Assembly: GCA_020718085.1 (NCBI GenBank) | Contig: DYDB01000006.1 | Span: 8,510-72,509, forward strand | Length of the DNA: 64,000 nucleotides | DNA from: Micavibrio sp. | GTDB taxonomy: Bacteria > Patescibacteriota > Minisyncoccia > Moranbacterales > GCA-2747515 | Direction of reading: 5' to 3' | Shown here: positions 5,793 through 49,137 of the stretch, in pieces | Numbering within the stretch: position 1 is the first letter of the stretch | Layout: every line of letters begins with the position of its first letter | Program-made: the position numbers and the translations under genes | Notes under the pieces: model-generated | What the model was told of the DNA's origin: nothing | Databases searched by the model: none | Seen by the model: only the letters and a program-made list of their open reading frames with translations

Positions 5793-6431
5793 ATGGAAAA
5801 AGAGATAGAAGAAATCATACGTGTCTTGAGTGGTGGCGGTATCGGCGTGATGCCAACGGATACGATCTATGGCCTTGTGGCAGGTGCACATGATGTACAA
5901 GCTGTGGAAAAAGTATATCAACTAAAGGGTCGAGCACCACAGCGACCGTTTCTTGTGCTTGTTGCACATATTGCACAAATTGAAGAATTTGACATTGTAT
6001 TGAGCGAACAGCAGAAAAATATTCTCACAGGGATTTGGACTGCTGAAAGTGGATATTACGCAAAAGTAGTGGATTTACAATATGCTGTTGTTGAAAGAAG
6101 CAATCGTCCGATCAGCGTAGTGATTCCATGCATGAGCGATAAATATTCCTATATTCATCGAGGGCAAAACTCAATCGGTTTTCGTCTTGTTGCCCAGCAA
6201 AATGAGATCTGTCACAGCATGTATGTGCATGAGATTCTGAAAAAGACTGGACCGATCATTGCAACGAGTGCGAATATTTCTGGTCAACCTTTTGCAAGAA
6301 CAATTGAGCAGGCACGTATATATTTTGGGGACGCATGTGATTTTTATGTAAAAAAAGTTCATAGTTTACATGCACAGCCGTCAGTTGTGGCATCTCTCAA
6401 TGATGATGCGCTTACAATTGTGCGTGCATAA
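5793..6431 (+). CDS. tsaC: L-threonylcarbamoyladenylate synthase, TsaC/YrdC/Sua5 family
   Basis: The N-terminal 'GGIGVMPTDTIYGLVAGAHDVQAVEKVYQLKGRAPQRPFLVLV' is the typical YrdC fold signature. Length 212 aa. Confidence 0.7.
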   Translation: MEKEIEEIIRVLSGGGIGVMPTDTIYGLVAGAHDVQAVEKVYQLKGRAPQRPFLVLVAHIAQIEEFDIVLSEQQKNILTGIWTAESGYYAKVVDLQYAVVERSNRPISVVIPCMSDKYSYIHRGQNSIGFRLVAQQNEICHSMYVHEILKKTGPIIATSANISGQPFARTIEQARIYFGDACDFYVKKVHSLHAQPSVVASLNDDALTIVRA

Positions 6432-7365: not shown

Positions 7366-9447
7366 ATGAAAATATGCGGATTTACGGTAATTTTTTTGGT
7401 GTATGGTGGTGTACTTCTGACAATACATACATACACAGATCACAGATTTACAGGAATCATCTTTTTCGGTTCATTGATCATTTGTGGCATAATTTTTGGC
7501 TACATGTGTGAAAAAAAGACGCGTGATCAAAAAAAGTATGAGAGCATCATCACGCAACTGCAACAAAATGTTGTTTCATGTGAGCAAAGACAATCAGATC
7601 TCTACTTTTCACGTTCGCCATTGGCAGTGATCGAGTGGAATACGGATTTTGTTGTGCGGTCATGGAATAAAAAAGCAGAGGAAGTTTTCGGTTATACGGC
7701 AGAAGAAATGATCGGTCAACATGCATCAAGAATCATACCAATGCAATATCAGGATAGGGCAATGGATGTAATGCGCGCTATTCTCATACATGATGAGAGC
7801 CAACAAAACATCTTTAAAAATTTTACCAAGGATGGTGAGGAGATCTATTGCGAATGGTTTAATACGCCGATTACAGATGTACATGGACATGTAACGGTGT
7901 ATTCACTTGTTCAAGATATTACGCAAAAAAAGCGAGCAGAGATCGCTTTGCGAGAAAACAAGAACAAGCTTGATGATATCTTCAACGCATTACATGATAT
8001 GGTATATGTCATTGAACCCGACGGATTTATAAGTTACGCAAATCCAAAATCCTATGATCTACTGGGGATTCCTGTGGAAGAATACGGCACTGTGCATTTT
8101 TCTCAACTTCTTGATGAGGAGGAGCAAATAATTGCACGTAAGAGGATCGCATTTCTATTGACGGAAAATGGCAGGATGACCACACCGCAAGTTTACCATT
8201 TGAAAAAAAGAGGAAATGATGATCAGCGGCTACCCGTTGAGATCATCACTGTGCCATTTAAAGAGAATGGAGTAAGAAAAGTTCTGGGGGTGGCAAGATT
8301 AATTTCAGAACGTCTGGAACTGGATCATGAGCGAGCGCGTAGCCAACGTATGCAGTCAATTAGTATTTTGGCCGGCGGCGTAGCACATGATTTTAACAAC
8401 TTGCTCATGGCAATTAGTGGCAATGTATCTCTTATGATGCATAATGGAAAAGATTCTGCTGAAAAATACTGTGAGAAAATCCTTGTTGCTGTAGAACGTG
8501 CAACAGGACTCACGCAACAGTTAAGTGCACTTGCAAAAGGAGGTGTTTCCATAAAGCAAGTGGCATTTATTTCCGATGTTGTGCAACAGACAGCAATGAT
8601 CATTGGTGATAGCACACAAAGTCGTTTCAGATTTGACTTTGAAGAAAGCTTAAAGCCGTGCTTCATTGATCAAAAAAAGATCGGTCAGGTATTTCAAAAT
8701 CTTTTCATCAATGCGAGTCACGCGATGCCCGGTGGGGGAATTATTCACGTTACCGGGGAAAACATAGATCTCGAAGAAGATAATCAATTTCTTCTGAAGT
8801 CTGGTAGTTACGTGCATGTTTCTGTGCGAGATTCTGGAACAGGCATTGCGGAGAAGTATCTATCGCGCATCTTTGAACCATATTTCACGACAAAGAGTGC
8901 GGGAGAAGGAACGGGATTGGGATTATATGTTGTATATTCTATTGTTGTAGAGCATGGTGGGCATATTGGTGTAAAATCAAAAGCTGATAAAGGAACAACA
9001 TTCCATATATATTTACCAGCAACTGAACTTATTGTAGAAAAAGAGCAAACGCTCGTGGAGGAAAAATTGCAAGGGAAAAAACTATCCATTCTTGCTGTGG
9101 ATGATATGGAAATGAATAGGGAGTTGCTTGCAGAAATGTCTCGTGCAATTGGACATGCATGTGATGTTGCAGCTGATGGCAGAGAAGGGTTAACTCTTTA
9201 TAAGAAGGCAATGGAGGCCAAAAAACCTTATGATCTGGTAATTACAGACCTGACAATTCCCGGCGGTATGGGTGGCGCGGAGTTTATTGAAGAGCTGCGA
9301 AAAATTCGTGAGAGTGTTATTGTGATCGTATCTTCTGGGTATTCAGATCATATGCCGGAGAATGTCGCTGGTTCTTTGCCAAAACCATTCAGCTTTCAAG
9401 CCATGCAAAAAGTGATTTATCGTGCCATGCAGTCTGACGTGACATGA
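7366..9447 (+). CDS. Hybrid sensor histidine kinase: 2 N-terminal TM helices, two PAS domains, HisKA, HATPase_c and a C-terminal receiver domain
   Basis: H-box 'ILAGGVAHDFNNLLMAISGNV'. ATPase G-box 'SGTGIAEKYLSRIFEPYFTTKSAGEGTGLGL'. Receiver 'LSILAVDDMEMNRELL...YDLVITDLTIPGGMGG'. AGGAGG RBS 6 nt upstream. Confidence 0.9.
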   Translation: MKICGFTVIFLVYGGVLLTIHTYTDHRFTGIIFFGSLIICGIIFGYMCEKKTRDQKKYESIITQLQQNVVSCEQRQSDLYFSRSPLAVIEWNTDFVVRSWNKKAEEVFGYTAEEMIGQHASRIIPMQYQDRAMDVMRAILIHDESQQNIFKNFTKDGEEIYCEWFNTPITDVHGHVTVYSLVQDITQKKRAEIALRENKNKLDDIFNALHDMVYVIEPDGFISYANPKSYDLLGIPVEEYGTVHFSQLLDEEEQIIARKRIAFLLTENGRMTTPQVYHLKKRGNDDQRLPVEIITVPFKENGVRKVLGVARLISERLELDHERARSQRMQSISILAGGVAHDFNNLLMAISGNVSLMMHNGKDSAEKYCEKILVAVERATGLTQQLSALAKGGVSIKQVAFISDVVQQTAMIIGDSTQSRFRFDFEESLKPCFIDQKKIGQVFQNLFINASHAMPGGGIIHVTGENIDLEEDNQFLLKSGSYVHVSVRDSGTGIAEKYLSRIFEPYFTTKSAGEGTGLGLYVVYSIVVEHGGHIGVKSKADKGTTFHIYLPATELIVEKEQTLVEEKLQGKKLSILAVDDMEMNRELLAEMSRAIGHACDVAADGREGLTLYKKAMEAKKPYDLVITDLTIPGGMGGAEFIEELRKIRESVIVIVSSGYSDHMPENVAGSLPKPFSFQAMQKVIYRAMQSDVT

Positions 9448-9468
9448 TAAACTGAAAAATATCAGACG

Positions 9469-9505
9469 CGGACCATTTCTTTTTAAAGAGATGGTCCGTT
9501 TTTAT
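9469..9505 (+). terminator. Rho-independent terminator (cggaccat...atggtccg stem + TTTTTAT)
   Basis: Long hairpin 9469-9498 followed by a T-run, 20 bp after the histidine-kinase stop. Confidence 0.7.
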
Positions 9506-9764
9506 ATAAAAGTTTTTTCACTATAGGGAAATAATAAAGGTATGCAAAATGTGGTCTTCTTAAATTTTTTTATATACTCTCTAAGGATAGCGGAATATGC
9601 AGATTTCTTTTTTTACCAAACGGAAGTATCGCCCTGAGAGAGTTTGGAACTTTAAGGTATTTACAAAATGCAAAAAGTATGGTAGAAAAAAGAGCTGACA
9701 ATGGGATCAGTTAGATTAAGGCAGTTCTTGAACAATTACATAATACAACAGAGAGGTGTTGGCG

Positions 9765-11825
9765 ATGAGAATAAAAAAGATGAAGTACACGACAAGACTG
9801 TTTATGGGAGTGATCGCAATCTGTGCCGCTTTGATTTTTGCGATTTCTACAAAATCAATCTATGACTCCACAGGTGGTTTATATAACCTCGGAGAAAAGG
9901 CAATTCAAGGATTTTTGCAATCGATGTACAATTCGTTGGTTCTGCAAGGTGATCTGACTAAAGAAAAACTATCTTCCGATAGTAGGGTGTTTTCTCGTGA
10001 GTTGGAATCGATGGGGAAAATCGGTCTTGCAGCAGATCAGGAAATATCTGTCACAATGACCGATCAAGATGACCCGCGTATATCAAAAACCGTGAAAATT
10101 CATCCTCTCAAAGTTGGTGAAAATATTCTCAACGGTGACGAGAAGCTTGTGGATAAAATACAAGAAATAATTGGCGGAAGAGCGACGGTCTTTCAGGTTG
10201 TAGACGGTGTGTTATTGCGTATTTCCACAAATGTCAAAAAGGCAGATGGAAAACGTGCTATTGACACGTACATTTCATCAAAAAGTCCTGTTACACAAGC
10301 TATCCTCAGTGGGCAACCTTTTGAAGGCAAACGGGCGACTGTCGTGGGGGAGCCGTATTTGGCGACATACATTCCGTTGCGTGATGAACAAAACGCTATA
10401 ATTGGTGCAATCTTTGTGGGACGTCCGATTCTTTCTGATAAAATACGAGCGTTCATCTCGAAAACGAAGCTTGGAAAAGGATATTTTTTCGTGTATGATA
10501 ATACGGAGAAGAAAACGGTAGTTCTCCATCCGTTGCTTGAGGGAAAAAGTCTCATTGAGGCTGTTAAAGATTTCAAGGGACATGAAGCCGGTCGTTTGGA
10601 ATACATCTTCAATGATGTATTGAAGGTGACCTACACTATCTACATTGAACAATGGGAGCTCAATCTCGGTTTTGGTTTGAATAAGATCGACATTGTTGAT
10701 GAACTGGATAAAAAAATGATGAAAAATAACATTGTCGTAGGATTGGTTGGGATATTGATTAGTTTATGTATGACATTGTTATTAGTGAGGTCAATCAACC
10801 GTCCTCTCAAAGAATTATCACAAAAAGTAGAACAAGTTGGGTCCGGTGATTTTACGGCTATGTTTGATACAAACATGCCTGATGATGAAATTGGCAAAGT
10901 TGCAAGATCAACATCGACTATGGTTGAAAAAATGAGGAAAATGATCGGAGAGATCACTTTATCTGCTCAGTCACTTTCTGCGTCGTCCACAGAACTTTCC
11001 GCAATTTCAAAACAGATGGAAAATGGTGCGGGGGTAACCGCAAAAATTTCCGAAGAAGTCTCAGAGGATTCCACGAAAGTTGCAGCGAATATGGATGCTG
11101 TGGCTGCTGCCATGGAACAATCAACGACCAGCCATCATCTTATTGCATCTGCAACGGAAGAGATGACTGCGACAACACGCGATATCGCACAGAATGGCGC
11201 AAGAGCAAGCGCAATCACACAAAAAGCTGTTGAAAGTGCAACGCGTTCGCAAAAAAGTGTTGATCAACTTGGTAAAGAAGCAAAGGAAATCGGAAATATC
11301 GTAGAAGAAATCAAAGATATTTCTGATCAAACCAACTTACTTGCACTTAACGCGACAATTGAAGCTGCGCGTGCTGGCGAAGCTGGTAAAGGGTTTGCAG
11401 TTGTTGCCAATGAGATCAAAGAATTGGCGCGACAAACCGCGTCTGCAACCGGACACATTAAAGCATCAATTGAATCGATTCAAAAAAAGACGGAAGAAAC
11501 AGTATGTGATATTGCATCTGTTACAGCAGTGATCGGCGACGTGAATGATATTGTTGCGTCAATTGCAACAGCGGTTGAAGAACAATCCGTAACAACCGGT
11601 GAAATCGGACAAAATTTAACGCAAGCATCGCAGGGCATTGGTGAGATCAATGAAAAAATTGCTGATAGCTCGCAGATGGTGCAGGATGTGTCGATAAAAA
11701 TTGAAAAAGTTTTGGGACACGCACAAGAGGTGAACGAAGGCAGTAGCCATGTGACGATTGCTTCAACAGAGTTATCACAAATGGCAGAGAAGTTAAATTC
11801 TCTTGTGGCACAATTCAAGATCTGA
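9765..11825 (+). CDS. Methyl-accepting chemotaxis protein with a periplasmic Cache-like sensor domain, HAMP and an MCP signalling domain. ATG at 9765 preferred over the GTG at 9756
   Basis: TM1 '[16 protein letters not shown]', a ~290-aa periplasmic domain, TM2 '[19 protein letters not shown]'. Highly conserved MCP signalling motif '[35 protein letters not shown]'. GAGAGG RBS 8 nt before the ATG. Confidence 0.9.
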
Positions 11826-11843
11826 CATGTAGAATGTCAGGAG

Positions 11844-11879
11844 GCGGAGGAAGAAACTATTTCTTTCCTCCGCTTTTTA
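11844..11879 (+). terminator. Rho-independent terminator (gcggaggaagaaa/tttctttcctccgc + TTTTT)
   Basis: 13-bp GC-containing stem and T-run immediately after the MCP stop. Confidence 0.8.
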
Positions 11880-11910
11880 ATTTACCTTGACAACCTTAGA
11901 TGGTGTGCTA

Positions 11911-11945
11911 ATATATCTATACCTATGGTATAGGTATAGATATAT
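11911..11945. promoter_or_regulatory. Perfect 16-3-16 inverted repeat ATATATCTATACCTAT-GGT-ATAGGTATAGATATAT. Candidate operator for the downstream CsoR/RcnR-family repressor and RND efflux operon
   Basis: The reverse complement of the 35-mer equals itself except for the 3 central nt. It lies 20 bp upstream of the 11965 ATG, with a TATAAT-like 'cataat' between them. Confidence 0.6.
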
Positions 11946-11964
11946 TTAGCATAATAAAATTTAT

Positions 11965-12252
11965 ATGAATGATAAGAAAATGAAGATCGCAATTGCACTC
12001 AAAAAAGCGCGCACGAGTATTGATAAAATTTTATATGCCATGGATTCTTCGCAGGATAAAAAATGTTTTGATATTATTCAACAAAATCTTGCAGTGATCG
12101 GACTTCTTAAATCTGCAAATATCTTGATGCTTGAAACGCATCTGGACGTATCTATAGAAAGTGTAAAGAACATGACGCCGTCGGAAAAGAAAAAGATGAA
12201 ACAAATTCGTGATGAGGTTGTGCGTATTGTGCAAACAGCACAAAATAAGTAA
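11965..12252 (+). CDS. CsoR/RcnR/FrmR-family (DUF156) metal/stress-sensing transcriptional repressor with an atypical ligand set
   Basis: 'LKKARTSIDKILYAMDSSQDKKCFDIIQQNLAVIGLLKSANILMLETHLD' aligns with RcnR/CsoR '[51 protein letters not shown]'. Cys at the X position and His at Y are conserved. The Z position (i+4 from His) is Ser, and there is no N-terminal His. Confidence 0.7.
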   Translation: MNDKKMKIAIALKKARTSIDKILYAMDSSQDKKCFDIIQQNLAVIGLLKSANILMLETHLDVSIESVKNMTPSEKKKMKQIRDEVVRIVQTAQNK

Positions 12253-12255
12253 TTT

Positions 12256-13365
12256 ATGCATATGCAAAAAAAACATAAGATCATTCTCGCCATATCTATC
12301 GTACCCGTGATCATTGCAGGATCTATTTTAGTTTTCTTTACTAAAAGGAGCATGGCGGCGCAAGGAGCAGAAGAAAAAAGATATCCTGTTAAGACGATTG
12401 CTGTGCAACCTGGCGTATTTGTGCCATTTGGTGAATATGGAGGATTTGTCCAAGGAAAAGATCAATCGATTGTATCTTCAAAGATCAATGGTCGTTTAGT
12501 TGAAATGAAAAAATATGATGGGGATATCGTACACAAAGGGGATGTGATTGCTGTGATCAATGCTGATGAATTAGCACAACAAGTTGTAAATGCACAAAAA
12601 ATGATCTCGTCCTTGGAAGACACGCTTCAGGATACAAAAAAATATTATGAACAAAAAGTTGATGAAGCAAAAGATGATGACGCAAGTAAAGAGGTTGTTT
12701 CCAGTGCGAAAAAATTGCGTTCATTGCAGGTGCAAAGTGTGCAAAATAGCATTGTAGAGGCGCAAGGAAATCTGCAATTGGCACAAAGTTTCGCCAAAGA
12801 AACAATCGTGAGAGCGCCATTTGATGGGGTGATTGTACGCACATTTCAAGAAAGCAGCCAAATTGTTGGTCCAGCGACACCACTTTTTGAAATTGCTGAT
12901 ATGTCGGAATTACAGGTTGAATTGTTTGTTGCGAAAGATGCTATGTTGGAACTTCCTGTAAATGCACGCGTTGATATTTTGATTGGTGAATCAAAAAAAG
13001 TTTTGGTTGGCACAGTGACATCTGTTGGGAAGCGTGCACAGAGCAGTGCACAACAGGCACGTATAACAGTAAAAATTGAAGAAAAAACAAATGTGCAAAT
13101 TGGACAATATGTGACAGTGCAATTGCCACACAATGTGATCTACGATGATGCAATTGTCATTCCAGAAGATGCGATTTTACAAAAATATGATGAAACTTTT
13201 GTATTTGTCGTAGAAAATGATCGTGCGATTATGCGTAAAATAGATCTTGGTGTGATATATGACGGAAAAGCGGCTGTGACCTCCGGCATTTCTTCCGGAG
13301 AACATGTCATTGTAGAGGGCATGCACACAGTGAGAGATCGATATTATGTAAAAGTCTATGATTGA
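12256..13365 (+). CDS. Efflux RND transporter periplasmic adaptor subunit (membrane fusion protein, HlyD family)
   Basis: N-terminal TM anchor, coiled-coil region, beta-barrel/lipoyl-like motifs (VTVQLPHNVIYDDAIVIPEDAI), ~369 aa. It begins 4 nt after the regulator stop. Confidence 0.8.
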   Translation: MHMQKKHKIILAISIVPVIIAGSILVFFTKRSMAAQGAEEKRYPVKTIAVQPGVFVPFGEYGGFVQGKDQSIVSSKINGRLVEMKKYDGDIVHKGDVIAVINADELAQQVVNAQKMISSLEDTLQDTKKYYEQKVDEAKDDDASKEVVSSAKKLRSLQVQSVQNSIVEAQGNLQLAQSFAKETIVRAPFDGVIVRTFQESSQIVGPATPLFEIADMSELQVELFVAKDAMLELPVNARVDILIGESKKVLVGTVTSVGKRAQSSAQQARITVKIEEKTNVQIGQYVTVQLPHNVIYDDAIVIPEDAILQKYDETFVFVVENDRAIMRKIDLGVIYDGKAAVTSGISSGEHVIVEGMHTVRDRYYVKVYD

Positions 13366-16300
13366 TATGAAAAAATTGCCAAAAACGGATCTTGGAATTG
13401 CAGGAAAATTGACATATTTTTTCCTTCATAATACAGTTTTTTCCGTTCTCTTGATCATCATTATTGTTGTGTGGGGTGTAATATCTTTTGTTGTGATGCC
13501 GAAGCAATACAATCCAGAGATCGTTGCACCGGCTTTTGTGATCACAACGGACTATCCATATGCAACGAGTCGTGAAATATATGAACAGATCACGCGACCA
13601 ATGGAAGATAAAATATCGGAGTTGCAAAATATTGATGGTATTATGTCACAAAGCATTCCTGGCGGACGCAGTATCGTAACAGTAAAATTCGAAATTGGTT
13701 CAGATCAAGAGGATGCAAAAGTATTGCTCAATCAAAAAATGCAGGATAATATGGCGCTCAAACCAATTGGCGCACAAGATCCTCTCATTCGTTCAATTGA
13801 CCCTGATGATGTTCCAATCATGGATGTCGGCATTTCTTCGCAGATATATAGCGAAAGCTCTTTGCGTAAAATGGCATTTGATATTGCCGATGAATTAAAA
13901 AAAGTGGAGGGTGTATCAAAATTTGACGTAATTGGTGGACGTACAAAACAACTCTCTGTGAAGCCTCGTAGTGCACAGCTTTCGGCATATGATATCTCAT
14001 TGCAAGAAATTATGTCAGTAATAGCGTCGGTAAATGGTGTGTATACTTCTGACATGATCTCAAGTGATGCACGAAATTTTATCGTGAACATATCACAATC
14101 TATTTCATCACCAGAAGAGGCTGGGCAACTTATTGTGCGTGAAGAAAATGGCGCGTTTGTGCGTTTGGGTGATATCGCAGACATTTCATACGATGAAGGA
14201 GAGATCACGCATTATGTAGATATCACAGACAAAAATGGTGATGAAAAACCTGTTGTGCACATAGCATTTGCAAAGATCAAGGGAACAAATGCCACAACTG
14301 TATCAAAGGGCATAGAAGAAAAGCTTGAGGTGTTGCATGGTTCACTGATCCCTTCAGATGTTTCTGTAACGATCTTGCGAGATGAAGGCGAAGTGGCGCA
14401 AAATGAGATTGGTAAATTAACGTATGATCTTATAAAGTCAATTATAATTGTTGCAGCATTGCTCATGATCTTTTTGGGCATGCGTAATTCTATGGTTGCT
14501 GCAGTATCTATTCCGCTTGTCCTGCTTGTGGTCTTTGGTATCGGATTGCTCTTTGGACACACGGTAAATCGCATCACGCTTTTCGCACTCATTTTATCTT
14601 TGGGACTTTTGGTAGATGATGCAATTGTTGTGATTGAAAACATTGCGCGGTATTTTCGGATGTATCCACAAGAAAATAAAAAGAAGGTGATCGTTTTTGC
14701 AGTAAATGAAGTTGGTTCGGCATTATCATTATCAACAGTGACAATGGCATTGGCATTTGTGCCTATGGCATTTGTAACAGGCATGATGGGTCCGTATATG
14801 GGTCCAATCCCATTTTTTGTACCAGTTGCTCTTTTAGCATCACTCGTTCTTTCCGTAACGATCAATCCGTTTCTTGCGCTGATTTTTACAAAACAAACAC
14901 AACGATCGCAAAATATTTTTTTGCGGTGGTTTGGCATTATAGAGGAAAAGTATGCACATGGCGTAGATTACCTGCTCGCAGAAAAGAAACGTTATCGCAT
15001 GACAATCATGGTCGTGATGATCATTTTTGTGTTTTCGGTTATTTTGCCATTTACACCGCTCGTGCCGTTTCGCATGCTTCCAAAAGCGGATCGTGATCAG
15101 TTTTATGTGTACCTTGATCTGCCAAGTGATACCACAAGTGAAAAAATGCGAACTGTTGCACGTACGGTCACAAAGTCACTTGCACAAGATCAATATGTCA
15201 CAAGTGTGGAAAGTTTTGTCGGTACGGCGCCAGTGGAGGATTTTAATGGATTATTTCGCGGAAGTGGGCAGCGTATATATGAAAATCAGGCAACAATAAA
15301 AATAAACCTCACTTCACATGAATTGCGTAATTATAAGTCAGAGGATATTGCACAGGAATTTCGCTTGCGGTCACGAGATGTCATTGCACAGCATCCAGAT
15401 CTTACAATACGCATTGTGGAGGATCCGCCGGGACCACCTGTTCTTGCAACATTTTTGATAAAAGTTACGGGGAAGGATGATGTTATGCGTGAGCAGATCG
15501 CAGAAGATGTTCTATTGCGCGTGCAGAATATTTCCGGCGTTGACGATATTGATATTTCATCGCCAAATCATGTGCTTCATCAGACATATAAGATCAATAC
15601 AGAAAAAGCACAGCAGCTCGGTGTATCGCCAAAAATGATCGCACAGACATTGCATACAGCGCTATCGGGTTCCATTGCTGGGATCTATCATCACGATGAT
15701 ATACGATCATCACGATACGCTGAACAAGAATATATCATTGTACAATTATCGCATGATGATCGTGATGCTGCAGATGTGCTTTCAACGCTATCCGTCACAA
15801 CATCGCATGGTGTGCAAATTGGTATTGGGGAATTTTTGGAAAAAACAAATACATCTTTTGATATGCCGATCATTACAGATGCACGAAATGTCGTAACATA
15901 TATTTCCGGGGAAATGGTAGGACGTAGTGTCGTGTATGCAGCAATCGAACTTTTGTCGCAATTACGTACATATAATATTCCGAACAGCGAAGGTCAATTA
16001 GTACACTGGTCACTTTTTGGTGCGGAATATGAAGATATGGCTAGCGGGCAAAAATATGAGGTCTTGATCGATGGAGAATGGAAGTTAACATTGGAAATCT
16101 TTCGTGATCTAGGTATTGCGATGGGCATTGCAATTTTTATGATCTATTTTGTACTTGCTGGAAAAATAAAATCGTTTTTTGTACCACTGTTGATCATGGT
16201 GAGCATTCCACTTGGTTTTATCGGTGTATTTTTTGGGTTTGCGATACTTTTTGCGATCAAGGGAACGTATTTTAATGCAACATCAATGATTGGGATCATT

Positions 16301-16609
16301 GCACTTGCTGGGCTATCTGTAAAAAATGCTGTGATCTTTTTGGAATATCTTGAGCCACTGCACTCTGTCGGATATGATTTGCGCAGAGCATTGGTGGAAA
16401 CAGGGCGTATTCGTCTGTTGCCGATCGTGCTCACATCTCTTACGGCGATACTTGGGTCACTAACGATCATTTCCGATCCTGTGTGGGAAGGTTTGGCATG
16501 GGCTCTCATTTTTGGCTTGACGGTGTCAACTGTCTTAACTTTGGTTATTTTTCCACTTATGTATTACGCCTTCATGAAGGATCGATGGAATGATAAAATA
16601 AAAAAATAA
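13358..16609 (+). CDS. Efflux RND transporter permease subunit (AcrB/CzcA/HAE family), 12 TM with two large periplasmic loops
   Basis: 1083 aa. Typical layout of TM1, a large loop, then a TM cluster 'ALLMIFLGMRNSMVAAVSIPLVLLVVFGIGLLFGHTVNRITLFALILSLGLLVDDAIVVIEN' carrying the conserved D-D in TM4, repeated in the C-terminal half. It overlaps the adaptor-subunit stop by 8 nt (translational coupling). Confidence 0.9.
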   Translation: MIDMKKLPKTDLGIAGKLTYFFLHNTVFSVLLIIIIVVWGVISFVVMPKQYNPEIVAPAFVITTDYPYATSREIYEQITRPMEDKISELQNIDGIMSQSIPGGRSIVTVKFEIGSDQEDAKVLLNQKMQDNMALKPIGAQDPLIRSIDPDDVPIMDVGISSQIYSESSLRKMAFDIADELKKVEGVSKFDVIGGRTKQLSVKPRSAQLSAYDISLQEIMSVIASVNGVYTSDMISSDARNFIVNISQSISSPEEAGQLIVREENGAFVRLGDIADISYDEGEITHYVDITDKNGDEKPVVHIAFAKIKGTNATTVSKGIEEKLEVLHGSLIPSDVSVTILRDEGEVAQNEIGKLTYDLIKSIIIVAALLMIFLGMRNSMVAAVSIPLVLLVVFGIGLLFGHTVNRITLFALILSLGLLVDDAIVVIENIARYFRMYPQENKKKVIVFAVNEVGSALSLSTVTMALAFVPMAFVTGMMGPYMGPIPFFVPVALLASLVLSVTINPFLALIFTKQTQRSQNIFLRWFGIIEEKYAHGVDYLLAEKKRYRMTIMVVMIIFVFSVILPFTPLVPFRMLPKADRDQFYVYLDLPSDTTSEKMRTVARTVTKSLAQDQYVTSVESFVGTAPVEDFNGLFRGSGQRIYENQATIKINLTSHELRNYKSEDIAQEFRLRSRDVIAQHPDLTIRIVEDPPGPPVLATFLIKVTGKDDVMREQIAEDVLLRVQNISGVDDIDISSPNHVLHQTYKINTEKAQQLGVSPKMIAQTLHTALSGSIAGIYHHDDIRSSRYAEQEYIIVQLSHDDRDAADVLSTLSVTTSHGVQIGIGEFLEKTNTSFDMPIITDARNVVTYISGEMVGRSVVYAAIELLSQLRTYNIPNSEGQLVHWSLFGAEYEDMASGQKYEVLIDGEWKLTLEIFRDLGIAMGIAIFMIYFVLAGKIKSFFVPLLIMVSIPLGFIGVFFGFAILFAIKGTYFNATSMIGIIALAGLSVKNAVIFLEYLEPLHSVGYDLRRALVETGRIRLLPIVLTSLTAILGSLTIISDPVWEGLAWALIFGLTVSTVLTLVIFPLMYYAFMKDRWNDKIKK

Positions 16610-16678
16610 TTTATGTGAATTGAGATAGTGACGTATTTGTGTTATAGTGGTGCATAGATTTTAATTGTGACTATATTT

Positions 16679-17323
16679 ATGGGAATTATTGATTTTATCT
16701 TGCATGTTGATGTTCATCTGGGAGAGTTGATCGCGCAATACGGCAGTGTGACATATGGTATTCTATTTACAATTATTTTTGCGGAGACGGGATTGGTATT
16801 CACACCTTTTTTGCCGGGAGATTCACTTTTGTTCGCGGCGGGCATGTTCGCGGCAAATGGGGCGTTTGATCCAATCTTTTTAGCGGTAATTTTGATGATT
16901 GCAACGCTTTTGGGAGACAATGTGAACTATTGGATCGGGCATTATTTTGGCAAAAAGATCGTGAATAATACAATGATCCCGATCAAGCAAAAACACATCG
17001 ACAAAACAGAATTGTTCATGAAAAAATATGGGGGAAAAACAATTTTCCTCGCGCGTTTTATGCCGATCGTACGCACATTTGCACCGTTTGTTGCAGGAAC
17101 AGGGAGAATGGATTATCGCAAGTTTTTGATCTTTAGCATTGCAGGATGTGTAACGTGGGTATGGGGATTTATCTTCGCAGGATATTTTTTCGGTAATATT
17201 CCAATTGTGCGTGATAATTTTTCTCTGGTTGTTATGGGCATTATCGCGATCTCTGTCGCACCTGCATTTTGGGAATTTGCAAAAAAGATATTCCATAAAT
17301 ATCATGCAAAATATTCTGCGTGA
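16679..17323 (+). CDS. DedA/SNARE-associated (VTT domain) family membrane protein (ORF track starts at the GTG at 16667)
   Basis: 'FAETGLVFTPFLPGDSLLFAAGMFAA' is the DedA hallmark. ~215 aa, multi-TM. Confidence 0.8.
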   Translation: MGIIDFILHVDVHLGELIAQYGSVTYGILFTIIFAETGLVFTPFLPGDSLLFAAGMFAANGAFDPIFLAVILMIATLLGDNVNYWIGHYFGKKIVNNTMIPIKQKHIDKTELFMKKYGGKTIFLARFMPIVRTFAPFVAGTGRMDYRKFLIFSIAGCVTWVWGFIFAGYFFGNIPIVRDNFSLVVMGIIAISVAPAFWEFAKKIFHKYHAKYSA

Positions 17324-17361: not shown

Positions 17362-17598
17362 ATGATAGAGCAAAAGCAAAAGCATTATCGCATGTGTGTG
17401 GGATATTGGCATATTCCGCGTGCGATCTATTTGATCGGTGGTTTCTTGATCTTTGCATCCGTTTTTCTTGCTCTGATGTTTGATGAAAAATGGCTATATC
17501 TCACCCTCTTTATAGGATTTATGTTCATGAGTTTTGCGTTTACGGGGTATTGTCCGATGGCAATTCTCTTGGATAAGATTGGATTGCGACGAGAGTGA
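17362..17598 (+). CDS. DUF2892 (YgaP C-terminal-like) small membrane protein, rhodanese-associated
   Basis: 78 aa with two TM helices. 'GFMFMSFAFTGYCPMAILLDKIG' matches the DUF2892 GxCPxxxxLG motif. The same domain is fused to a rhodanese at 19537..20067. Confidence 0.6.
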   Translation: MIEQKQKHYRMCVGYWHIPRAIYLIGGFLIFASVFLALMFDEKWLYLTLFIGFMFMSFAFTGYCPMAILLDKIGLRRE

Positions 17599-17784
17599 AA
17601 AATATTTTTCAGAACAGCGGAGGAGTACGCTAAATTCTGACATGATCATGAGGATCGTCGAAAAATTCTTGGCATATCATACGTATGAGAAGAACCCTCA
17701 TCCAAAAGTTCTGTTGGGGGGAGGTCGTTTACGCGTTTATTGTTTGTATATTTTGTGATATTCTGTAAGAGAAAAGAAAAATAT

Positions 17785-19152
17785 ATGAAAAAAAAATCGA
17801 CAATTACATTTTATGGTGGTGCGGGGTTTGTGACGGGAGCAAATTTTTTATTTGACACGGGTGGACGAAAGATCCTCATCGATTGCGGTTTGGAGCAGGA
17901 GGGAGCGGGTTGTTATATGAAAGACAATGAGTTTCACTATGATCCGGCAACAGTTCATGCACTTATTGTGACACATGCACATGCGGATCACATAGGAAAG
18001 ATACCCAAGCTCGTGAAAGATGGATTTCAGGGCACAATTTATTCTACATCTGCAACTAAAGATCTTTCGGCTGTGATGCTGGATGATGCTTTGAAAATCC
18101 TCACTGAGGAGGCGGATGAATTTGGTTGTGCACCTCTTTACGATCGTGTGGATATTGCACACGCATTGTCAAAATGGCGCACAATTGAGTATCATCATCC
18201 TTTTACGGTTGGTGATGGTGTTATGATTGAGTTTCTTGATGCGGGTCATATTTTAGGTAGTGCAATGGTGCAATGTGAACGAGAAGGGCGCAGAATCATC
18301 TTTACGGGGGATCTGGGAAATTCTCCGGAGCTTATTTTGCCGGATACGGAGAAAATTCATGATGCGAATTACTTGCTCATGGAAAGCGTCTACGGCGATC
18401 GTAATCATGAAAGTCGTCGAGATCGCACAGAGCGTTTAGCTCAGGCAATTCGCGATAATTATAAGCGCGGTGGCACACTACTTATCCCGACATTTGCACT
18501 GCAACGTGCTCAAATCCTTCTTTATGAGATCAATAAGCTTGTGGAACATAAACGCGTCCCGGAAATGCCGGTATATTTTGATGCACCACTCGCACAACGT
18601 GTCACGGAAATATTCCGTCGTTATAAAAAGCTATATAACACAAGAGTGCAAACAGAGATTTCTCGTGGGGATGATATTTTTGATTTTCCACACTTTGTAA
18701 GTGTAAAGACCATCACAGAATCTTTGATGTTGGATAAAAAAAATGGCCCAAAAATTGTCATCGCAAGCTCTGGCATGTCCAATGGCGGACGCATTCGGTT
18801 GCATGAGAAAAAGCTTTTGGAAGACAAAAAAAATACGATACTTTTTGTGGGCTATCAGGCATTTGGCACCTTGGGGAGAGAGATCTCAGAACGTAAGAAA
18901 AAGAAGGTGTATATTGATGGGGTGTGGGTGCGCATGCGTGCAAAAATTGACATTATTCAAGGATATTCAGGGCATAAAGACAGTAATGGTCTCATTGATT
19001 TTGTAGGAAGTAGTGCGCAGACACTTGAAAAAATTTTTGTTGCGATGGGGGAACCGGCATCTGCACAGCATTTAGCACAAAAATTGCGTGATAAATATCA
19101 TATTGATACAAAAACGCCACATGAAGATGATGTAGAGGAAATCGATTTTTGA
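17785..19152 (+). CDS. Beta-CASP family MBL-fold ribonuclease (CPSF73/RNase J-like RNA-metabolising metallo-beta-lactamase)
   Basis: HxHxDH 'HAHADHIG'. 'DAGHILGSA'. Beta-CASP motif A 'ESVYGDRNH' immediately followed by 'RGGTLLIPTFALQRAQILLYEI' (CPSF-type signature). Motifs B/C 'GYSGHKD'. The ATG at 17785 (MKKKSTITFYGGAG) is preferred over the far-upstream GTG. Confidence 0.8.
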   Translation: MKKKSTITFYGGAGFVTGANFLFDTGGRKILIDCGLEQEGAGCYMKDNEFHYDPATVHALIVTHAHADHIGKIPKLVKDGFQGTIYSTSATKDLSAVMLDDALKILTEEADEFGCAPLYDRVDIAHALSKWRTIEYHHPFTVGDGVMIEFLDAGHILGSAMVQCEREGRRIIFTGDLGNSPELILPDTEKIHDANYLLMESVYGDRNHESRRDRTERLAQAIRDNYKRGGTLLIPTFALQRAQILLYEINKLVEHKRVPEMPVYFDAPLAQRVTEIFRRYKKLYNTRVQTEISRGDDIFDFPHFVSVKTITESLMLDKKNGPKIVIASSGMSNGGRIRLHEKKLLEDKKNTILFVGYQAFGTLGREISERKKKKVYIDGVWVRMRAKIDIIQGYSGHKDSNGLIDFVGSSAQTLEKIFVAMGEPASAQHLAQKLRDKYHIDTKTPHEDDVEEIDF

Positions 19153-19536: not shown

Positions 19537-20067
19537 ATGGCACAAAAAATTATTGCGCAAGATTTTTATAAAATACTAAAAGAAAATTTCGAACACGAAA
19601 GAGTGTGTGTAGATGTCCGTACAGAAGCAGAACATGATAGTGAGTGTATTGCAAATTCAATGAACATTCCTGTCGATCAGTTGCGTAGTCATCTAGATAT
19701 TCTGAGATCTTTTGAAAGCGTGTATGTATATTGTGCAAGTGGTAATCGATCAGCGATGGCATGTGAAATTCTTGAGAATAATGGCTTTAAAAAAGTATAT
19801 GATCTGCAAGATGGTCTAAATGGGTGGAAACTTGAAAAATTGCCAACAATTTGTAAAGAAAAAAATCGTTTACCGTTGATGCAGCAAGTACTAATTGTTG
19901 TGGGTGCGATCGTTTTTGGAAGTATTATTTTAGGGTATACGGTGTATGAGCTATTTTTTATCTTGCCGCTTCTTTTGAGCATTGGACTTTTGTATGCCGG
20001 TTTTAGTGGCAATTGTCTTTTGACAAAAGTTCTCATCAGAATGCCATGGAATCAACATAAAAAATAA
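19537..20067 (+). CDS. Rhodanese-domain sulfurtransferase fused to a C-terminal DUF2892 membrane domain (YgaP-like)
   Basis: Active-site loop 'YVYCASGNRSAMACEIL'. C-terminal TM region 'LPLLLSIGLLYAGFSGNCLLTKVLIRMPW'. Confidence 0.8.
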   Translation: MAQKIIAQDFYKILKENFEHERVCVDVRTEAEHDSECIANSMNIPVDQLRSHLDILRSFESVYVYCASGNRSAMACEILENNGFKKVYDLQDGLNGWKLEKLPTICKEKNRLPLMQQVLIVVGAIVFGSIILGYTVYELFFILPLLLSIGLLYAGFSGNCLLTKVLIRMPWNQHKK

Positions 20068-20432: not shown

Positions 20433-23400
20433 ATGAATATGAAAAGGTTGTTACAATATGTGTTGCTATTTTTTATGTCATCACTTTTGATATGTCACAC
20501 GACTTACGCAGCGGATGGTGATAGAGATCCCGATTTTTTAAGTGGTATAAACGGTGCTAATGGTGATATTTATACAACAATACTGCAACCAGATGGTAAA
20601 ATTATTATTGGAGGAGATTTTACCATTTATGGAGGAATAAATAGTCGTAATCATATTGCTCGTCTCAATGTCGATGGTTCTCTGGATATGAGTTTTGATC
20701 CGGGCAGTGGAGCTAACGATTATGTTCGCATCGCCGCTGTTCAATCCGATGGAAAAATCATTATTGGGGGAAATTTCACTACATACAATGGCATAGGCTC
20801 AAATCGCATTATTCGACTCAATGCTGACGGTTCACTAGACTCCTCATTTACCATAGGCACTGGAGCAAATAATAGTGTGACAGAAATTTCTTTTCAGTCC
20901 GATGGAAAAATCGTTATCGGTGGCAATTTCACCACATATAATGGTATATCTAGGAGTCGTATTGCTCGTCTCAATACTGACGGCACATTAGATGCGAGTT
21001 TTAATCCAGGAACGGGATTCAATGCTTCTGTGGCGGGTGTTGATATTCAATCCGATGGAAAAATTGTTGTCGGAGGTGTTTTTACCAGTTATAACAGTAT
21101 CGGCCAGAATCGCATCGCACGCCTTAATGCCGATGGCTCGTTAGACACGAGTTTCATCGTTGGTACGGGAGCAGATAGTTCTGTCCTTGCAACCGGCATG
21201 CAGACTGATGGAAAAATTATCATCGCTGGACGATTTGCCAGCTACAATGGCATTAGTATTAATGATGTTGCACGTCTCAATACTGATGGCTCGCTGGATA
21301 CAAGTTTTGATCCTGGAACGGGAACAACGGGTGATGTGGAGCAGGTTAATATGCAAACTGATGGAAAAATTGTCATTTCTGGTTATTTTAGTACATATAA
21401 TGGTACAGCAAGAAAATATATAGCTCGTCTCAATTCTGATGGTTCAGTAGATGCAAGTTTTGATCCGGGAACAGGAATTGGTGGTGAAAATCTTATTATT
21501 TTTAGTACAGCCATTCAAACAGATAACAAAATTGTTATTGGCGGAAGTTTTGATAACTATGGCGGCGTTTCTCGCAATCACATTGCACGTCTCAATGCTG
21601 ATGGCATACTCGATAATGTATTCAACATAGGTAATGGAGCGGGAACAAGCGGTGATGTCAGAGGTACGGCAACACAGTCCGATGGAAAGGTTGTTATTGT
21701 GGGAAACTTTGATAGCTATAATGGCGTTAACAGTAACTATATTGCTCGCATTAACGTTGATGGTACATTGGATACCACGTTTGATGTTGGTGCGGGGGCA
21801 AATAACTATATTTATGATGTGGGTATTCAGTCAGACGGCAAAGTTATCATTGCAGGAAGTTTCAGCGCATATAATGGCACGGCGATCAATCGTATTGCTC
21901 GTCTTAATACTGATGGAAGTCTAGATACTACTTTCAATAGCGGTTCAGCAGCAAATAATGTTATTTTTGCTATTGATATTCAGCAAAATGATAAAATTAT
22001 TATTGGTGGTAATTTCACTGCATACAACGGCACAACCAGAAACCGTATCGCGCAGCTCAATGTGGATGGTACGTTAGATGCGAACTTTTCTACAGGGGCT
22101 GGAGCGAATAATTCCATCTACAATATAGGAGTTCAATCAGATGGCAAGATTATTATTGCAGGTAACTTCACTGCATACAATGGCACAACCAGAAACCGTA
22201 TTGCGCGCGTGAATGTCGACGGCACACTAGATACAGAATTTACAGTAGGGACAGGAGCAAATAATATTATTTATACTACCATTATCCAGCCTGATGATAA
22301 GATCGTTATTGGTGGTAATTTTACCACATACAACGGTACAACCAGAAACCGTATTGCTCGCCTTGATGCCAATGGCACATTAGATGCGGCATTTACTATA
22401 GGAACAGGTGCAAATAATTATGTCTATGATATGGATATTCAATTTGACAATAAAATTGTTATTGGTGGCAACTTCACTACATACAACGGGATAATGAGAA
22501 ATTATATCGCGCGTCTTAATACTGATGGCACATTAGATACGAGTTTTGATCCGGGCTCAGGTGCAGATAGCGAGGTTAGCAGTATTGAGCTTCAGTCTGA
22601 TGGAAAAATTATGGCTGGAGGATGGTTTGAAATTTATGATAATACACATGCTGAATATGTAACAAGGATTTTATCTGATTTTCAAACTATAAGTCCAACA
22701 GTTTTTACTGGTCGAGTAAGTAACAATGCAGACGCAAGTGCTACTATGGAGGGTATCATTACGGGTACAGGCGGTGAGAATCCGGAACGTATTATCGAAT
22801 GGGGAACGGAAAGTAGTAATTATAATAACTTTTGTACGGCTGGTGTGGGAGGTATTGGGGGTTATGCATGTTCTATGACAGGGCTTACACTGAACGATAC
22901 ATATTTCATTCGAGCAAAGGCTACAAATAGTATCGGAACAAGCTATGGTCAAGAGATAACATATACACATTTTGAGTCTCTTGCGGAGACCATTGTTCCC
23001 AATGAATTTATTGGAGGAGGTGTCAGTCAAGGGTGGCAGGATGATGAAATGACGTGGGCATATACACTTCCGTTTGATTTTTCATTTTACGGTGAATTAT
23101 ATGTTGCAGGAACGTCAATTGGCATCACATCAAACGGACAAATTTGCTTGGAGGATGATTCAACTTGTGTGGATTATGAAAATAATATTACATCACAATT
23201 GCATGGACCATTTATTGCGCCATTGTGGACAGATTTAAATTCCACAAATACAGGTGGCATTTTCATTACGGAAACACCGGAATATATCGTTATCAGATGG
23301 GAAACGGAAGAATATGATGTCCCGGGAGAGGTGTTGAATTTTGAAGTCGTGCTCTATTCTAATGGTAACATTAAATTTAATTATGATACGCAAACTGCTC

Positions 23401-48105: not shown

Positions 48106-49137
48106 ATGGAAAAGAGCAAAAGGATGTTGATCGCACTCAATAAAAAGCATTCCGAAATGTTTCAAAGTCAGAGGTTGGAACGGGAGTTGTATCTTTCACA
48201 GCATCCTACAAATGTGATCGTTTTTAAATGTATGGATGGACGCATTCACATGCCGACAGTAACACGTACTCCGCTTGGTATTATGCAACCATTTCGCAAC
48301 ATCGGAGGAAGGTTTGATTTAGGATGGCCGATGCTGAATGAGTCTTTTGATCAACATATCAAAAAAGCGGTGTCGAAAGGTAATCGTACACTCGTTTTGG
48401 TTACATATCATTTTTCCGCCGGTGATGAACATCGTGGTTGTGCAGGATTTAATTATGATTGCGAAGAATCGAAAAGATTCACAGAAAACTTTCGCAAACA
48501 AATTTTGCGTACATATGGAAAAGATAATGGTGTTGTCTACCCGATCCTTGTGGGCTTGGAAACTGATAAAGATGCGCTGATATTTCATGGGGAGCGTGGA
48601 CGCATTTTGGATGTGTCACAAATCGTTGATGCATCATTTGAATCATTATTTGTGTCATTTCATAAATTATATCCATCAATGCCGGAACGTATCCTACATG
48701 ATCTGATCCCATTGGTACAGGGTAATGTGCAATGTATTAAAGAAACAATGAACATGGGCAAGCCGCTCAAGCAAATGGTGCATGGTGAATGGATATTAGC
48801 TGTTGGAAAAGGTTTTGATTGGTTACATACGCCGAACATCGCTCTTATCGTAGGACCGTATGATCCGAATATTGGAGAACCGATCAAAAAAGCGGTAGGG
48901 ATCATCAAATCAAATTTACATACAAAAAAGACGAAAGACGGGTTTGTTCTCTTGTCATCAGCAGTATATTCTGACGCTGCGGAAAAAAACCGAGCAAAAG
49001 AACGCACGACATATCTTAGCAATTTAACACAAGAGATCATTGCGCAGCATTATGCGGATATGATTGCACGTACACATGTAATGTCTGTGATCATCAATGC
49101 ACAAACAATGGAAATGGAAATGATCAATCGAAAATAA
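48106..49137 (+). CDS. Beta-carbonic-anhydrase-like protein (internally duplicated; N-terminal half retains the zinc-site motif), first gene of the Nuo/Ehr-like cluster
   Basis: N-terminal half: 'KCMDGRI' (C-x-D-x-R), 'FRNIGG' (beta-CA RNxGN-like), 'YHFSAGDEHRGCAGF' (H-x-x-C-[AG]). The C-terminal half repeats the fold with ligands lost ('VQCIKETMNMG', 'FVLLSSAVYSDAAE'). Confidence 0.45.
   Translation: MEKSKRMLIALNKKHSEMFQSQRLERELYLSQHPTNVIVFKCMDGRIHMPTVTRTPLGIMQPFRNIGGRFDLGWPMLNESFDQHIKKAVSKGNRTLVLVTYHFSAGDEHRGCAGFNYDCEESKRFTENFRKQILRTYGKDNGVVYPILVGLETDKDALIFHGERGRILDVSQIVDASFESLFVSFHKLYPSMPERILHDLIPLVQGNVQCIKETMNMGKPLKQMVHGEWILAVGKGFDWLHTPNIALIVGPYDPNIGEPIKKAVGIIKSNLHTKKTKDGFVLLSSAVYSDAAEKNRAKERTTYLSNLTQEIIAQHYADMIARTHVMSVIINAQTMEMEMINRK

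Follow-up and report, generated by a model that had tools for sequence, protein, structure and literature searches.

The CsoR/RcnR family is a textbook case of one small fold that has been retuned to different signals (Cu, Ni/Co, persulfide, and formaldehyde) through a four-position fingerprint, the last three positions of which are called X, Y, and Z below. A family autorepressor that controls an exporter through an ATACC/GGTAT operator is known already. The published classes of the superfamily are x-C-H-C, x-C-H-H, H-C-H-H, P-C-H-x, H-C-H-C, and x-C-x-C (PMC8643695), and the operators consist of ATAC/GTAT repeats around short interrupted G/C tracts (PMC5146963). In the formaldehyde sensor FrmR of Escherichia coli, His60 lies 3.2 Å from Cys35 and is hydrogen bonded to it, an H60A variant is constitutively derepressed, and the Z position (T64A) is dispensable (PMC5146963). 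Here, we analyzed a 64-kb stretch of contig DYDB01000006.1 (the window), in which a gene for a CsoR/RcnR-family regulator follows a long palindrome and precedes the genes of a resistance-nodulation-division (RND) efflux pump. Three things about this locus are new: the regulator has an x-C-H-x fingerprint with just one Cys and with neither Pro2 nor a Tyr before the Cys; its target is a cassette of a hydrophobe/amphiphile efflux 1 (HAE1)-like RND pump and a DUF2892 protein without an outer membrane factor; and its clade is confined to bacteria that belong to the candidate phyla radiation (CPR).

The regulator gene (11965 to 12252, + strand, 95 amino acids [aa]) is preceded by a perfect inverted repeat at 11910 to 11946, with two 17-nucleotide (nt) arms (11910 to 11926 and 11930 to 11946) that are 100% complementary and separated by a 3-nt spacer. 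It is the longest small-loop palindrome in the window; in a control of 30 random Markov-1 sequences, the longest arms measured 8 to 11 nt, with one at 15. The initial annotation had proposed it as the operator and described it as a perfect 16-3-16 palindrome, unusually long and perfect for the family. The symmetry is real and perfect but had been drawn one pair short (11911 to 11945), and its length is a property of this instance, not a requirement of the family. The conserved part comprises about 9 to 12 bp per arm (nested ATACC/GGTAT), whereas the outer AT-rich 5 to 8 bp of symmetry, which also form the −10 box, belong to this contig only. The 21-bp core, TATACCTATGGTATAGGTATA, at 11918 to 11938 (TATACC-TAT-GGTATA-GGTATA), occurs once in the window, with 0 occurrences expected (100 shuffles). 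Likewise, ATACC-N3-11-GGTAT was found only at 11910 to 11946 within the window, and a search of the window for further operator copies that would make up a regulon returned none. The units of the site are the hexamers TATAYC and GRTATA, which produce an inner and an outer ATACC/GGTAT pair; as far as the sequence can tell, these nested pairs agree with descriptions of CsoR-family sites as tandem or 2:1 tetramer sites.

The left arm of the palindrome overlaps a predicted sigma-70-type promoter (11887 to 11914, + strand) with a −35 box TTGACA (11887 to 11892), a 16-nt spacer, and an extended −10 element TGcTAATAT (11906 to 11914). Its consensus score of 10/12 ties with those of several other sites for the top score between 11600 and 17800, and just two of these top-scoring sites, this one included, carry the TG extension. 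The same layout, TTGAC(A/G), about 17 nt, a −10-like hexamer, 2 to 6 nt, and the operator, recurred in 14 loci of related regulators (group A, defined below). At these loci, the core ATACC-N3-GGTAT-A-GGTAT, or a close variant, lies 2 to 6 bp past the −10 box; it is kept in L001, L004, L006, L009, L010, L022, and L083 to L085 and degenerate in L003, L007, L023, and L086. The variants include ATACCTATACC-N3-GGTATAGGTAT as well as degenerate left halves (GTACC/CTACC), and both the core and its promoter register are kept across regulators down to about 45% identity. A like site also occurs at copper-type loci (e.g., CTATACCTACCCCCCAGGTATAG). Because the sequence itself is conserved, and not just the ability to pair, and because the distance to the −10 box is fixed, we read the palindrome as a protein-binding site, and its predicted role as the operator, proposed before on this locus alone, gains from the 14 related loci. 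Furthermore, the end of the −10 box at 11914 places the expected transcription start within the left arm, and the element would therefore act on DNA, by occluding the −10 box and the start, rather than as an RNA hairpin.

The 5′ boundary of the cassette is an intrinsic terminator of the upstream chemoreceptor gene (11839 to 11878, + strand), with a fold of −22.2 kcal/mol followed by a U-run (z = −4.76; 0/200 shuffles match its stability). Downstream of the regulator gene, on the same strand, lie the genes for a membrane fusion protein (MFP; 12256 to 13365, 369 aa) and an HAE1-like RND permease (13358 to 16609, 1,083 aa). The gap between the regulator and MFP genes, given before as 4 nt, measured 3 nt, or 9 nt with the alternative MFP ATG at 12262 that underlies the 367-aa NCBI call. 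The 8-nt overlap of the MFP and RND genes (ATGATTGA; MFP stop codon at 13363 to 13365, RND ATG at 13358) was found as first described, and so was the grouping of the three genes, whose order is kept in every related locus with downstream sequence.

The regulator is predicted, from both its sequence and a structural model, to be a member of the CsoR/RcnR family. It matched Pfam family PF02583 (DUF156) over residues 6 to 88 (29.5 bits; gathering cutoff, 22.8), and a profile of 46 relatives matched Mycobacterium tuberculosis CsoR (2hh7; E value = 6e-9) as well as the Thermus thermophilus, Geobacillus, and Streptomyces lividans CsoRs, Streptococcus pneumoniae CstR, FrmR, and InrS. By this profile, the closest solved relatives are Cu(I) CsoRs. 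An AlphaFold2 (AF2) model (predicted local distance difference test [pLDDT] score, 93.9) contained three helices (2 to 28, 35 to 65, and 72 to 94), and the top nine PDB matches to it in Foldseek were FrmR, CsoR, and CstR chains, with InrS also among the best. We then aligned the regulator to M. tuberculosis CsoR, a check that had been suggested earlier: C34, H59, and S63 fell on C36, H61, and C65, which agrees with the Cys at X, His at Y, and Ser at Z first assigned. Cys34 is the sole cysteine, the residue before it is K33, and the position of the helix 3 Glu of CsoR is taken by Q80, although the alignment is less certain there. The N terminus reads MNDKKMK, and the clade alignment contained no conserved N-terminal His, Pro, or Cys, in keeping with the N-terminal His reported missing. 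The predicted fingerprint is x-C34-H59-x, which is FrmR-like at X and Y but without Pro2.

As the initial annotation had stated, this fingerprint matches none of the published classes, although Ser at Z is no feature of the clade, where Z varies freely. Assignments to FrmR and to CstR were considered and rejected. FrmR was suggested by a JGI label ("FrmR family"), a weak NCBIfam match, and the best Foldseek match; the regulator lacks Pro2, and there is no frmA. CstR is at odds with the single Cys and with the His at Y. A Cu(I) CsoR of the x-C-H-C class is contradicted by S63 at Z, K33 in place of Tyr, and the absence of adjacent copper genes, and RcnR or InrS (H-C-H-H or H-C-H-C) by the lack of a conserved N-terminal His and by the Ser at Z.

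A protein search returned 453 relatives, the named ones all from Moranbacteria/Moraniibacteriota, Parcubacteria, Peregrinibacteria, Gracilibacteria, or Absconditabacteria, and residue statistics were taken from the top 120. The DNA of the window had a match of its own in a contig from a groundwater metagenome. These split into group A (81 sequences, including that of the window) and group B (39), with the motifs x-C-F and Y-C-I around the Cys, respectively. Cys at X was present in all sequences of both groups (81/81 and 39/39), and His at Y was nearly as constant (78/81 and 39/39). The groups differed at Z, which is Cys in 38/39 group B sequences and ranges over Y (20), H (18), S (8), T (8), E (7), A (6), Q (4), C (4), and L (3) in the 81 of group A. 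They also differed at the position preceding the Cys, which is Tyr in 38/39 group B sequences, as in the M. tuberculosis, T. thermophilus, and Geobacillus CsoRs, and in 0/81 of group A. Exactly one Cys per protein was counted in 73/81 members of group A, while group B proteins mostly have two or three. At the position of M. tuberculosis CsoR Glu81, where the alignment is less secure, half of group B has Glu, and group A has Q, K, or A. These residues indicate that group B consists of canonical CsoRs, including the second-shell Tyr of the solved Cu(I) CsoRs, and that the real fingerprint of the window's clade, as predicted from the alignment, is x-C-H-x and not C-H-Ser.

In a rough neighbor-joining tree with five solved outgroups and 20 resamplings, the CPR family excluded the outgroups in 19/20 resamplings. 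The RND-linked group was nested among x-C-H-C sequences (43 group A sequences and 1 group B sequence in one clade), and its strict monophyly was recovered in 0/20. The view that it derives from copper sensors rests mainly on the Y-C-[IV]...H...C pattern common to the outgroups and the sister clade. One RND-linked regulator (L011, Ga0224510_10000125, 5870 to 6000) has retained Cys at Z (HLNEC), and the region upstream of its gene showed neither an ATACC/GGTAT site nor a clear TTGACA; this clade member may be wired differently or represent an intermediate.

Next, we looked into the genomic context of the regulator across 82 loci collected by an alignment-based scan of metagenomes and a scan of genomes, to which four look-ups were added; the scan of the genome collection with the single protein yielded one locus. 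In every group A locus with downstream sequence, the MFP gene adjoins the regulator gene, and the loci that are long enough go on to the RND permease gene and then the DUF2892 gene. Complete cassettes were present in the window, L001/L005, L009, L010, L011, and L083 to L086, while L003, L004, and L006 to L008 end early at contig ends. None of the approximately 70 group B/C loci contained an MFP or RND gene. Ten of their downstream genes were sampled: six encode HMA-DsbD_2 fusions (five of these with a cupredoxin domain), two encode HMA-bearing P-type (CopA-type) ATPases, one encodes a cupredoxin-only protein, and one had no match. The two groups are thus cleanly set apart by their neighbors, from which we conclude that the canonical paralogues regulate copper systems and that the x-C-H-x clade was recruited to an efflux pump. 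Moreover, the genes on either side vary from lineage to lineage, which marks the set of four as a self-contained cassette. Searches found no frmA (formaldehyde dehydrogenase) gene in the window or the related loci and no second CsoR paralogue in the window. Apart from this, the cassette of a complete genome (L085, CP064994.1, 7287 to 11584) has its MFP called as fragments of 261 and 99 aa and its RND permease as fragments of 129 and 488 aa, which suggests that the pump is decaying while the regulator and DUF2892 genes are intact. Open reading frames (ORFs) of L006 and L007 are broken under genetic code 11, yet the tblastn matches are continuous, and an alternative code may be in use.

The class of the pump, HAE1 or heavy metal efflux (HME), had been left open in the initial annotation, and it can be placed. 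The permease matched PF00873 over its full length (residues 20 to 1072, E value = 5e-155) and scored 398, 372, and 325 bits against multidrug RND models compared with 243 bits against the CusA/CzcA model. All RND subfamily scores were under their curated cutoffs and therefore point to a divergent RND lineage. The best PDB matches were MexB, AdeB-type pumps, TriC, MdtB, MexK, CmeB, and AcrB, and the solved HME pump ZneA ranked well under the HAE1 pumps. In transmembrane helix 4 (TM4), LLVDDAIVVIEN (VDDAIVVIEN) aligned to the conserved Asp-Asp of HAE1 pumps, and GLSVKNA in TM10 and RIRLLPIVLTSL in TM11 aligned to the TM10 Lys and TM11 Arg of MexB. We take these relay residues to correspond to D407, D408, K940, and R971 of AcrB. 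The TM4 signatures of HME pumps lack the Asp-Asp pair (A-x-V-D-A-A in CusA; D-F-G...D-G-A...E-N in CzcA). The permease is not enriched in Met (3.3%) and has no Cys, and those of its best 120 relatives that carry names are all from Moranbacteria or Parcubacteria.

The MFP matched the TIGR01730 (RND_mfp) model (153.8 bits; cutoff, 94.9) and the Pfam domains HlyD_3 and HlyD_D23. Its best solved relatives were TriA/TriB (8e-25) and MexJ (5e-10), with ZneB at just 3e-6. It has one N-terminal TM helix (approximately residues 6 to 31), no Cys, and no richness in Met, and neither it nor the permease has clusters of Met, Cys, or His. Two other identities were tried and rejected: HME (CusA/CzcA) for the pump, given the higher multidrug scores and the HAE1 relay residues in TM4, TM10, and TM11, and CzcB/NccB for the MFP, whose match to that model (4e-34, 118 bits) is far below the cutoff of 319 bits and weaker than those to TriA/B and MexJ. 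No outer membrane factor (OEP/TolC family) was found among the scanned ORFs of the window, and the host lineage presumably has no outer membrane. The pump is thus predicted to be HAE1-like (TriABC/MexJK/MexB-like) and not HME.

The fourth gene of the cassette, which encodes a YgaP-like DUF2892 protein with two TM helices (17362 to 17598, + strand, 78 aa), was absent from the initial annotation, as were the CPR/Moranbacteria origin of the DNA and the HAE1-like placement of the pump. The protein matched PF11127 (32 bits; cutoff, 25.3) and has an invariant TG(Y/W/F)CPMA motif in the alignment. Its gene follows the permease gene in all nine complete cassettes, and it does so directly in L001, L009, L010, L011, and L083 to L086. 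In the window, a gene for a DedA-family membrane protein stands between the two (16667 to 17323, + strand, 218 aa; 240.8 bits against NF008102, cutoff, 236; Pfam VTT_dom), an arrangement found only in this lineage and not in those eight loci. A promoter-like site ahead of the DedA gene (16620 to 16648, TTGAGA-17-TGtTATAGT) means that it may have its own promoter. Farther downstream are genes for a beta-CASP metallo-beta-lactamase (17740 to 19152) and a YgaP-type membrane rhodanese of 176 aa (19537 to 20067), with a rhodanese domain containing CASGNRS and two TM helices at about 111 to 158. The window therefore holds two DUF2892-type membrane modules inside 3 kb. The beta-CASP and rhodanese genes are syntenic in the two closest relatives (L083 and L084) and not in the distant cassettes, which adjoin SUF/NifU genes (L085) or MsrA/MsrB genes (L086). 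In E. coli, the DUF2892 domain forms the membrane portion of the rhodanese YgaP. The rhodanese, SUF/NifU, and Msr neighbors do no more than hint at sulfur or redox chemistry. In Azospira, a DUF2892 gene was induced about 10-fold by H2S (PMC5358917).

Taken together, we propose, with confidence that stands about midway between doubt and assurance, that the locus is a negatively autoregulated, self-contained efflux cassette of an uncultured groundwater bacterium of the Moranbacteria type (CPR/Patescibacteria), released by Cys34-His59′ chemistry. Regulator tetramers, probably two per nested site, would occupy the operator and block RNA polymerase at the regulator's own promoter. Two features of canonical CsoR are gone from the regulator, namely, the Cys at Z that serves as third Cu(I) ligand and the second-shell Tyr. 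What remains is the single Cys34 and His59 of the partner subunit, and Cys34, at the start of helix 2, would face that His as in every solved member of the family. By analogy with FrmR, modification or ligation of the Cys34 thiolate would break the Cys-His link and release the DNA. Release would permit a single transcript, translated in a coupled manner, to supply the regulator, adaptor, permease, and DUF2892 protein. The proton-driven pump, closest to TriABC/MexJK, would then expel an organic amphiphile across a single membrane without an outer membrane channel, with the MFP anchored by its own TM helix and the DUF2892 protein probably serving as an accessory subunit. In our view, the trigger is most likely a thiol-reactive non-metal, that is, an electrophile, an oxidant, or a persulfide/polysulfide, a proposal that we hold at about even weight. 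We favor such a signal over a soft metal because Z and the second shell are unconstrained, because the pump and adaptor look like organic-substrate exporters, and because this group of lineages also has canonical CsoRs of the copper type, encoded next to copper genes.

Several points weigh against this proposal. DNA binding, the effector, and the pump substrate all come from inference and not from experiment. HAE1-like sequence features do not prove an organic substrate, and the link of DUF2892 to sulfur rests on one transcriptome and the domain's presence in YgaP. To our knowledge, the CsoR fold has no non-covalent ligand pocket, and the chemistry was therefore guessed by elimination. Both the sister clade and the nearest relatives of solved structure consist of Cu(I) sensors, and the two clades have similar-looking operators. 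Furthermore, Z is His in 18/81 and Cys in 4/81 group A sequences, residues with which a metal site like that of T. thermophilus (x-C-H-H) could still be completed. FrmR, whose ligands are limited to Cys35, His60, and an N/O donor, shows tight in vitro binding of Zn(II), Cu(I), and Co(II) (PMC5146963).

A bolder form of the proposal, which we regard as tentative, is that the clade represents a new effector class: a minimal intersubunit Cys-His dyad, with no second Cys, Pro2, or metal site, would sense a thiol-reactive non-metal and drive an RND pump that has its own DUF2892 subunit with a Cys-Pro motif and no outer membrane channel, in bacteria without an outer membrane. The candidate signals under that proposal, just as tentatively put forward, are a persulfide/polysulfide or an organic electrophile from the host or a sulfidic habitat.

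It is possible, though we consider it on the doubtful side, that the regulator is instead a soft-metal sensor with a reduced site, in which Cys34 and His59′ plus solvent, backbone, or the Z residue bind Cu(I), Ag(I), or Zn/Cd. To a similarly limited degree of belief, the cassette would then be a metal exporter that complements the HMA-DsbD-cupredoxin and CopA systems of the canonical CsoR paralogues. The nearest clade is the canonical x-C-H-C group beside copper genes, the best solved profile relatives are Cu(I) CsoRs, 22/81 sequences have His or Cys at Z, and the metal binding of the FrmR Cys35/His60 site in vitro speaks for the same reading. In addition, the MFP carries precomputed BSH_CzcB/CusB domains beside its CzcB/NccB match, and a Ni-induced NreA-like gene of the CsoR family clusters with an HME RND system in Sphingobium (PMC5557971). 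However, Z is unconstrained (Y, S, T, A, E, Q, or L), the second-shell Tyr is gone in 81/81 sequences, and the position of M. tuberculosis E81 is mostly Q, K, or A, where the alignment is less certain. The pump also speaks against a metal exporter: the RND permease has the HAE1 Asp-Asp/Lys/Arg relay and not the CusA/CzcA TM4 signatures, its scores against multidrug models are the higher ones, TriC, MexK, and MexB come nearest to it, the MFP reaches 118 of the 319 bits of the CzcB/NccB cutoff and has TriA/B and MexJ as best solved relatives, and neither protein has Met, Cys, or His clusters.

We consider it improbable that the operator is bound but that release does not pass through the Cys, with either the substrate or a partner such as the DUF2892 product acting non-covalently or the regulator serving as a fixed-level homeostatic autorepressor. 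For most HAE1 pumps, the controlling regulator binds substrates in a non-covalent manner. The sequence of this regulator does not reveal an effector, and the variable Z position and N terminus indicate relaxed constraint around the classical site. Against this, Cys34 is present in 81/81 sequences and His59 in 78/81 while the other ligand positions drift, which argues for continued selection on the pair, and no non-covalent effector is described for CsoR/RcnR members in PMC8643695 and PMC5146963. Finally, that the palindrome is an RNA hairpin, a terminator-like element, or a chance AT-rich repeat rather than a protein operator is very unlikely indeed: the region is AT rich and a consensus scan flags 11912 to 11938 as terminator-like, but with transcription expected to begin within the left arm, the RNA cannot contain the complete hairpin, the genuine terminator sits upstream at 11839 to 11878, and the core, which matches the ATAC/GTAT operator type of the family (PMC5146963) with 0 chance matches expected, is kept in 14 loci at a constant spacing to the −10 box, as sequence and not as mere pairing.

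At the level of principle, the locus holds no surprise; it offers a clean, experimentally tractable regulator-operator pair. The clade pares the fingerprint down to the Cys-His pair while keeping the DNA site and autoregulation, and it thereby puts to the test how small the sensing unit of the fold can become. If the signal is copper, then Cu(I) sensing can survive the loss of a ligand and of the allosteric Tyr. We know of almost no transcription factor-operator pair for CPR bacteria, and the 21-bp operator, a 95-aa protein that is likely easy to purify, and a conserved target provide a handle on regulation in these uncultured organisms. The cassette also raises the question of how a TriABC/MexJK-like RND pump and adaptor work without an outer membrane. 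In the literature, of which our coverage was incomplete and gives no proof of absence, we found neither a link of CsoR to Patescibacteria/CPR nor an x-C-H-x class without Pro2. Such sequences are probably present, though undiscussed, in the published network analysis of the superfamily.

Some features of the wider window stand apart from the cassette. Directly upstream (7366 to 11825) are genes for a hybrid PAS histidine kinase with a receiver domain, which is syntenic in L083, and for a Cache/HAMP methyl-accepting chemotaxis protein (9756 to 11825); these sensory genes are there though the named relatives of the cassette's regulator and RND permease are all from small-genome Moranbacteria or Parcubacteria. 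A gene cluster at 48106 to 57496 encodes a membrane complex resembling group 4 [NiFe] hydrogenases and Mrp, with a NuoB-like subunit, two Proton_antipo_M proteins, a NuoH- and NuoK-like fusion, and a fused protein resembling NuoC, NuoD, and the NiFe large subunit. It is flanked by carbonic anhydrase-like genes (CsoSCA-like, 48106 to 49137; Pro_CA_2, 56585 to 57496), an unusual pairing in a putative CPR genome. The ORF at 75 to 4334 is the tail of a 3,658-aa protein, according to a matching ENA contig, and that at 20433 to 24089 (1,218 aa) contains 13 DUF5122 beta-propeller repeats (642 bits). Nearly all real-looking ORFs of more than 150 aa are on the + strand, the GC skew stays positive (+0.10 to +0.24) from the second 4-kb bin onward, and the window has a GC content of about 40%. 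Scans of all 64 kb against Rfam and for tRNA genes returned no structured RNA and no tRNA.

Compared with known systems, the regulator resembles the Cu(I) CsoRs of M. tuberculosis, Bacillus subtilis, S. lividans, and T. thermophilus (x-C-H-C or x-C-H-H) in its Pfam family and three-helix fold, in the Cys at the start of helix 2 with a His 25 residues on, and in being encoded by the first gene of the operon that it would repress, with ATACC/GGTAT inverted repeats at the promoter. It differs from them in lacking the third ligand (Ser at Z here, variable in the clade) and the Tyr before the Cys (Lys here, never Tyr in the clade), in having one Cys, and in its target, an RND cassette instead of copA/copZ. 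With FrmR of E. coli and Salmonella (P-C-H-x), it shares the Cys at X, the His at Y, and a dispensable non-ligand at Z. E. coli FrmR was also the best structural match of the AF2 model (TM-score, 0.71), and its Cys-His hydrogen bond is a ready model for signal transfer (PMC5146963). In contrast to FrmR, it has no Pro2, so the Pro2-CH2-Cys35 bridge cannot form; the N terminus of its clade is variable, there is no frmA neighbor, and sequence similarity to FrmR is weak (E value = 0.27 for the single sequence and 8e-5 for the profile).

The likeness to CstR of Staphylococcus aureus, Enterococcus faecalis, and S. pneumoniae (x-C-x-C, persulfide sensor) is that of a Cys-based sensor of a non-metal, with a DUF2892 gene always near the window's clade and a membrane rhodanese gene near its close relatives as well. 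CstRs, however, have no His at Y (an Asn "wedge" instead), normally use two Cys residues that form di- to tetrasulfide links, and control sulfide-oxidation genes rather than an RND pump (PMC8643695). Their resolving Cys is poorly conserved in sequence similarity network cluster 10 (PMC8643695), and single-Cys variants are therefore conceivable. The Ni/Co sensors RcnR, InrS, and NreA (H-C-H-H or H-C-H-C) belong to the same superfamily and, like the window regulator, control exporters other than P-type ATPases. The window regulator lacks their N-terminal His and amine ligand set and has no ligand at Z. An NreA-like gene clusters with an RND system in Sphingobium (PMC5557971), but that system is of the HME type, CnrCBA-like, with an outer membrane factor.

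On the side of the pump, TriABC-OpmH and MexJK, HAE1 pumps of Pseudomonas aeruginosa, supply the best solved relatives of the MFP, the permease is near TriC, MexK, and MexB, and the Asp-Asp/Lys/Arg proton relay is intact in it. Here, however, the only MFP carries an N-terminal TM anchor, no outer membrane factor gene was found among the scanned ORFs, the regulator is of the CsoR type in place of a TetR or MarR type, and a conserved DUF2892 gene is attached. The DUF2892 protein, in turn, shares with the TM domain of YgaP its two TM helices, the G-x-C-P motif, and the PF11127 match, but it stands alone, at 78 aa and without a rhodanese domain, while the full YgaP-type rhodanese of the window is encoded separately.

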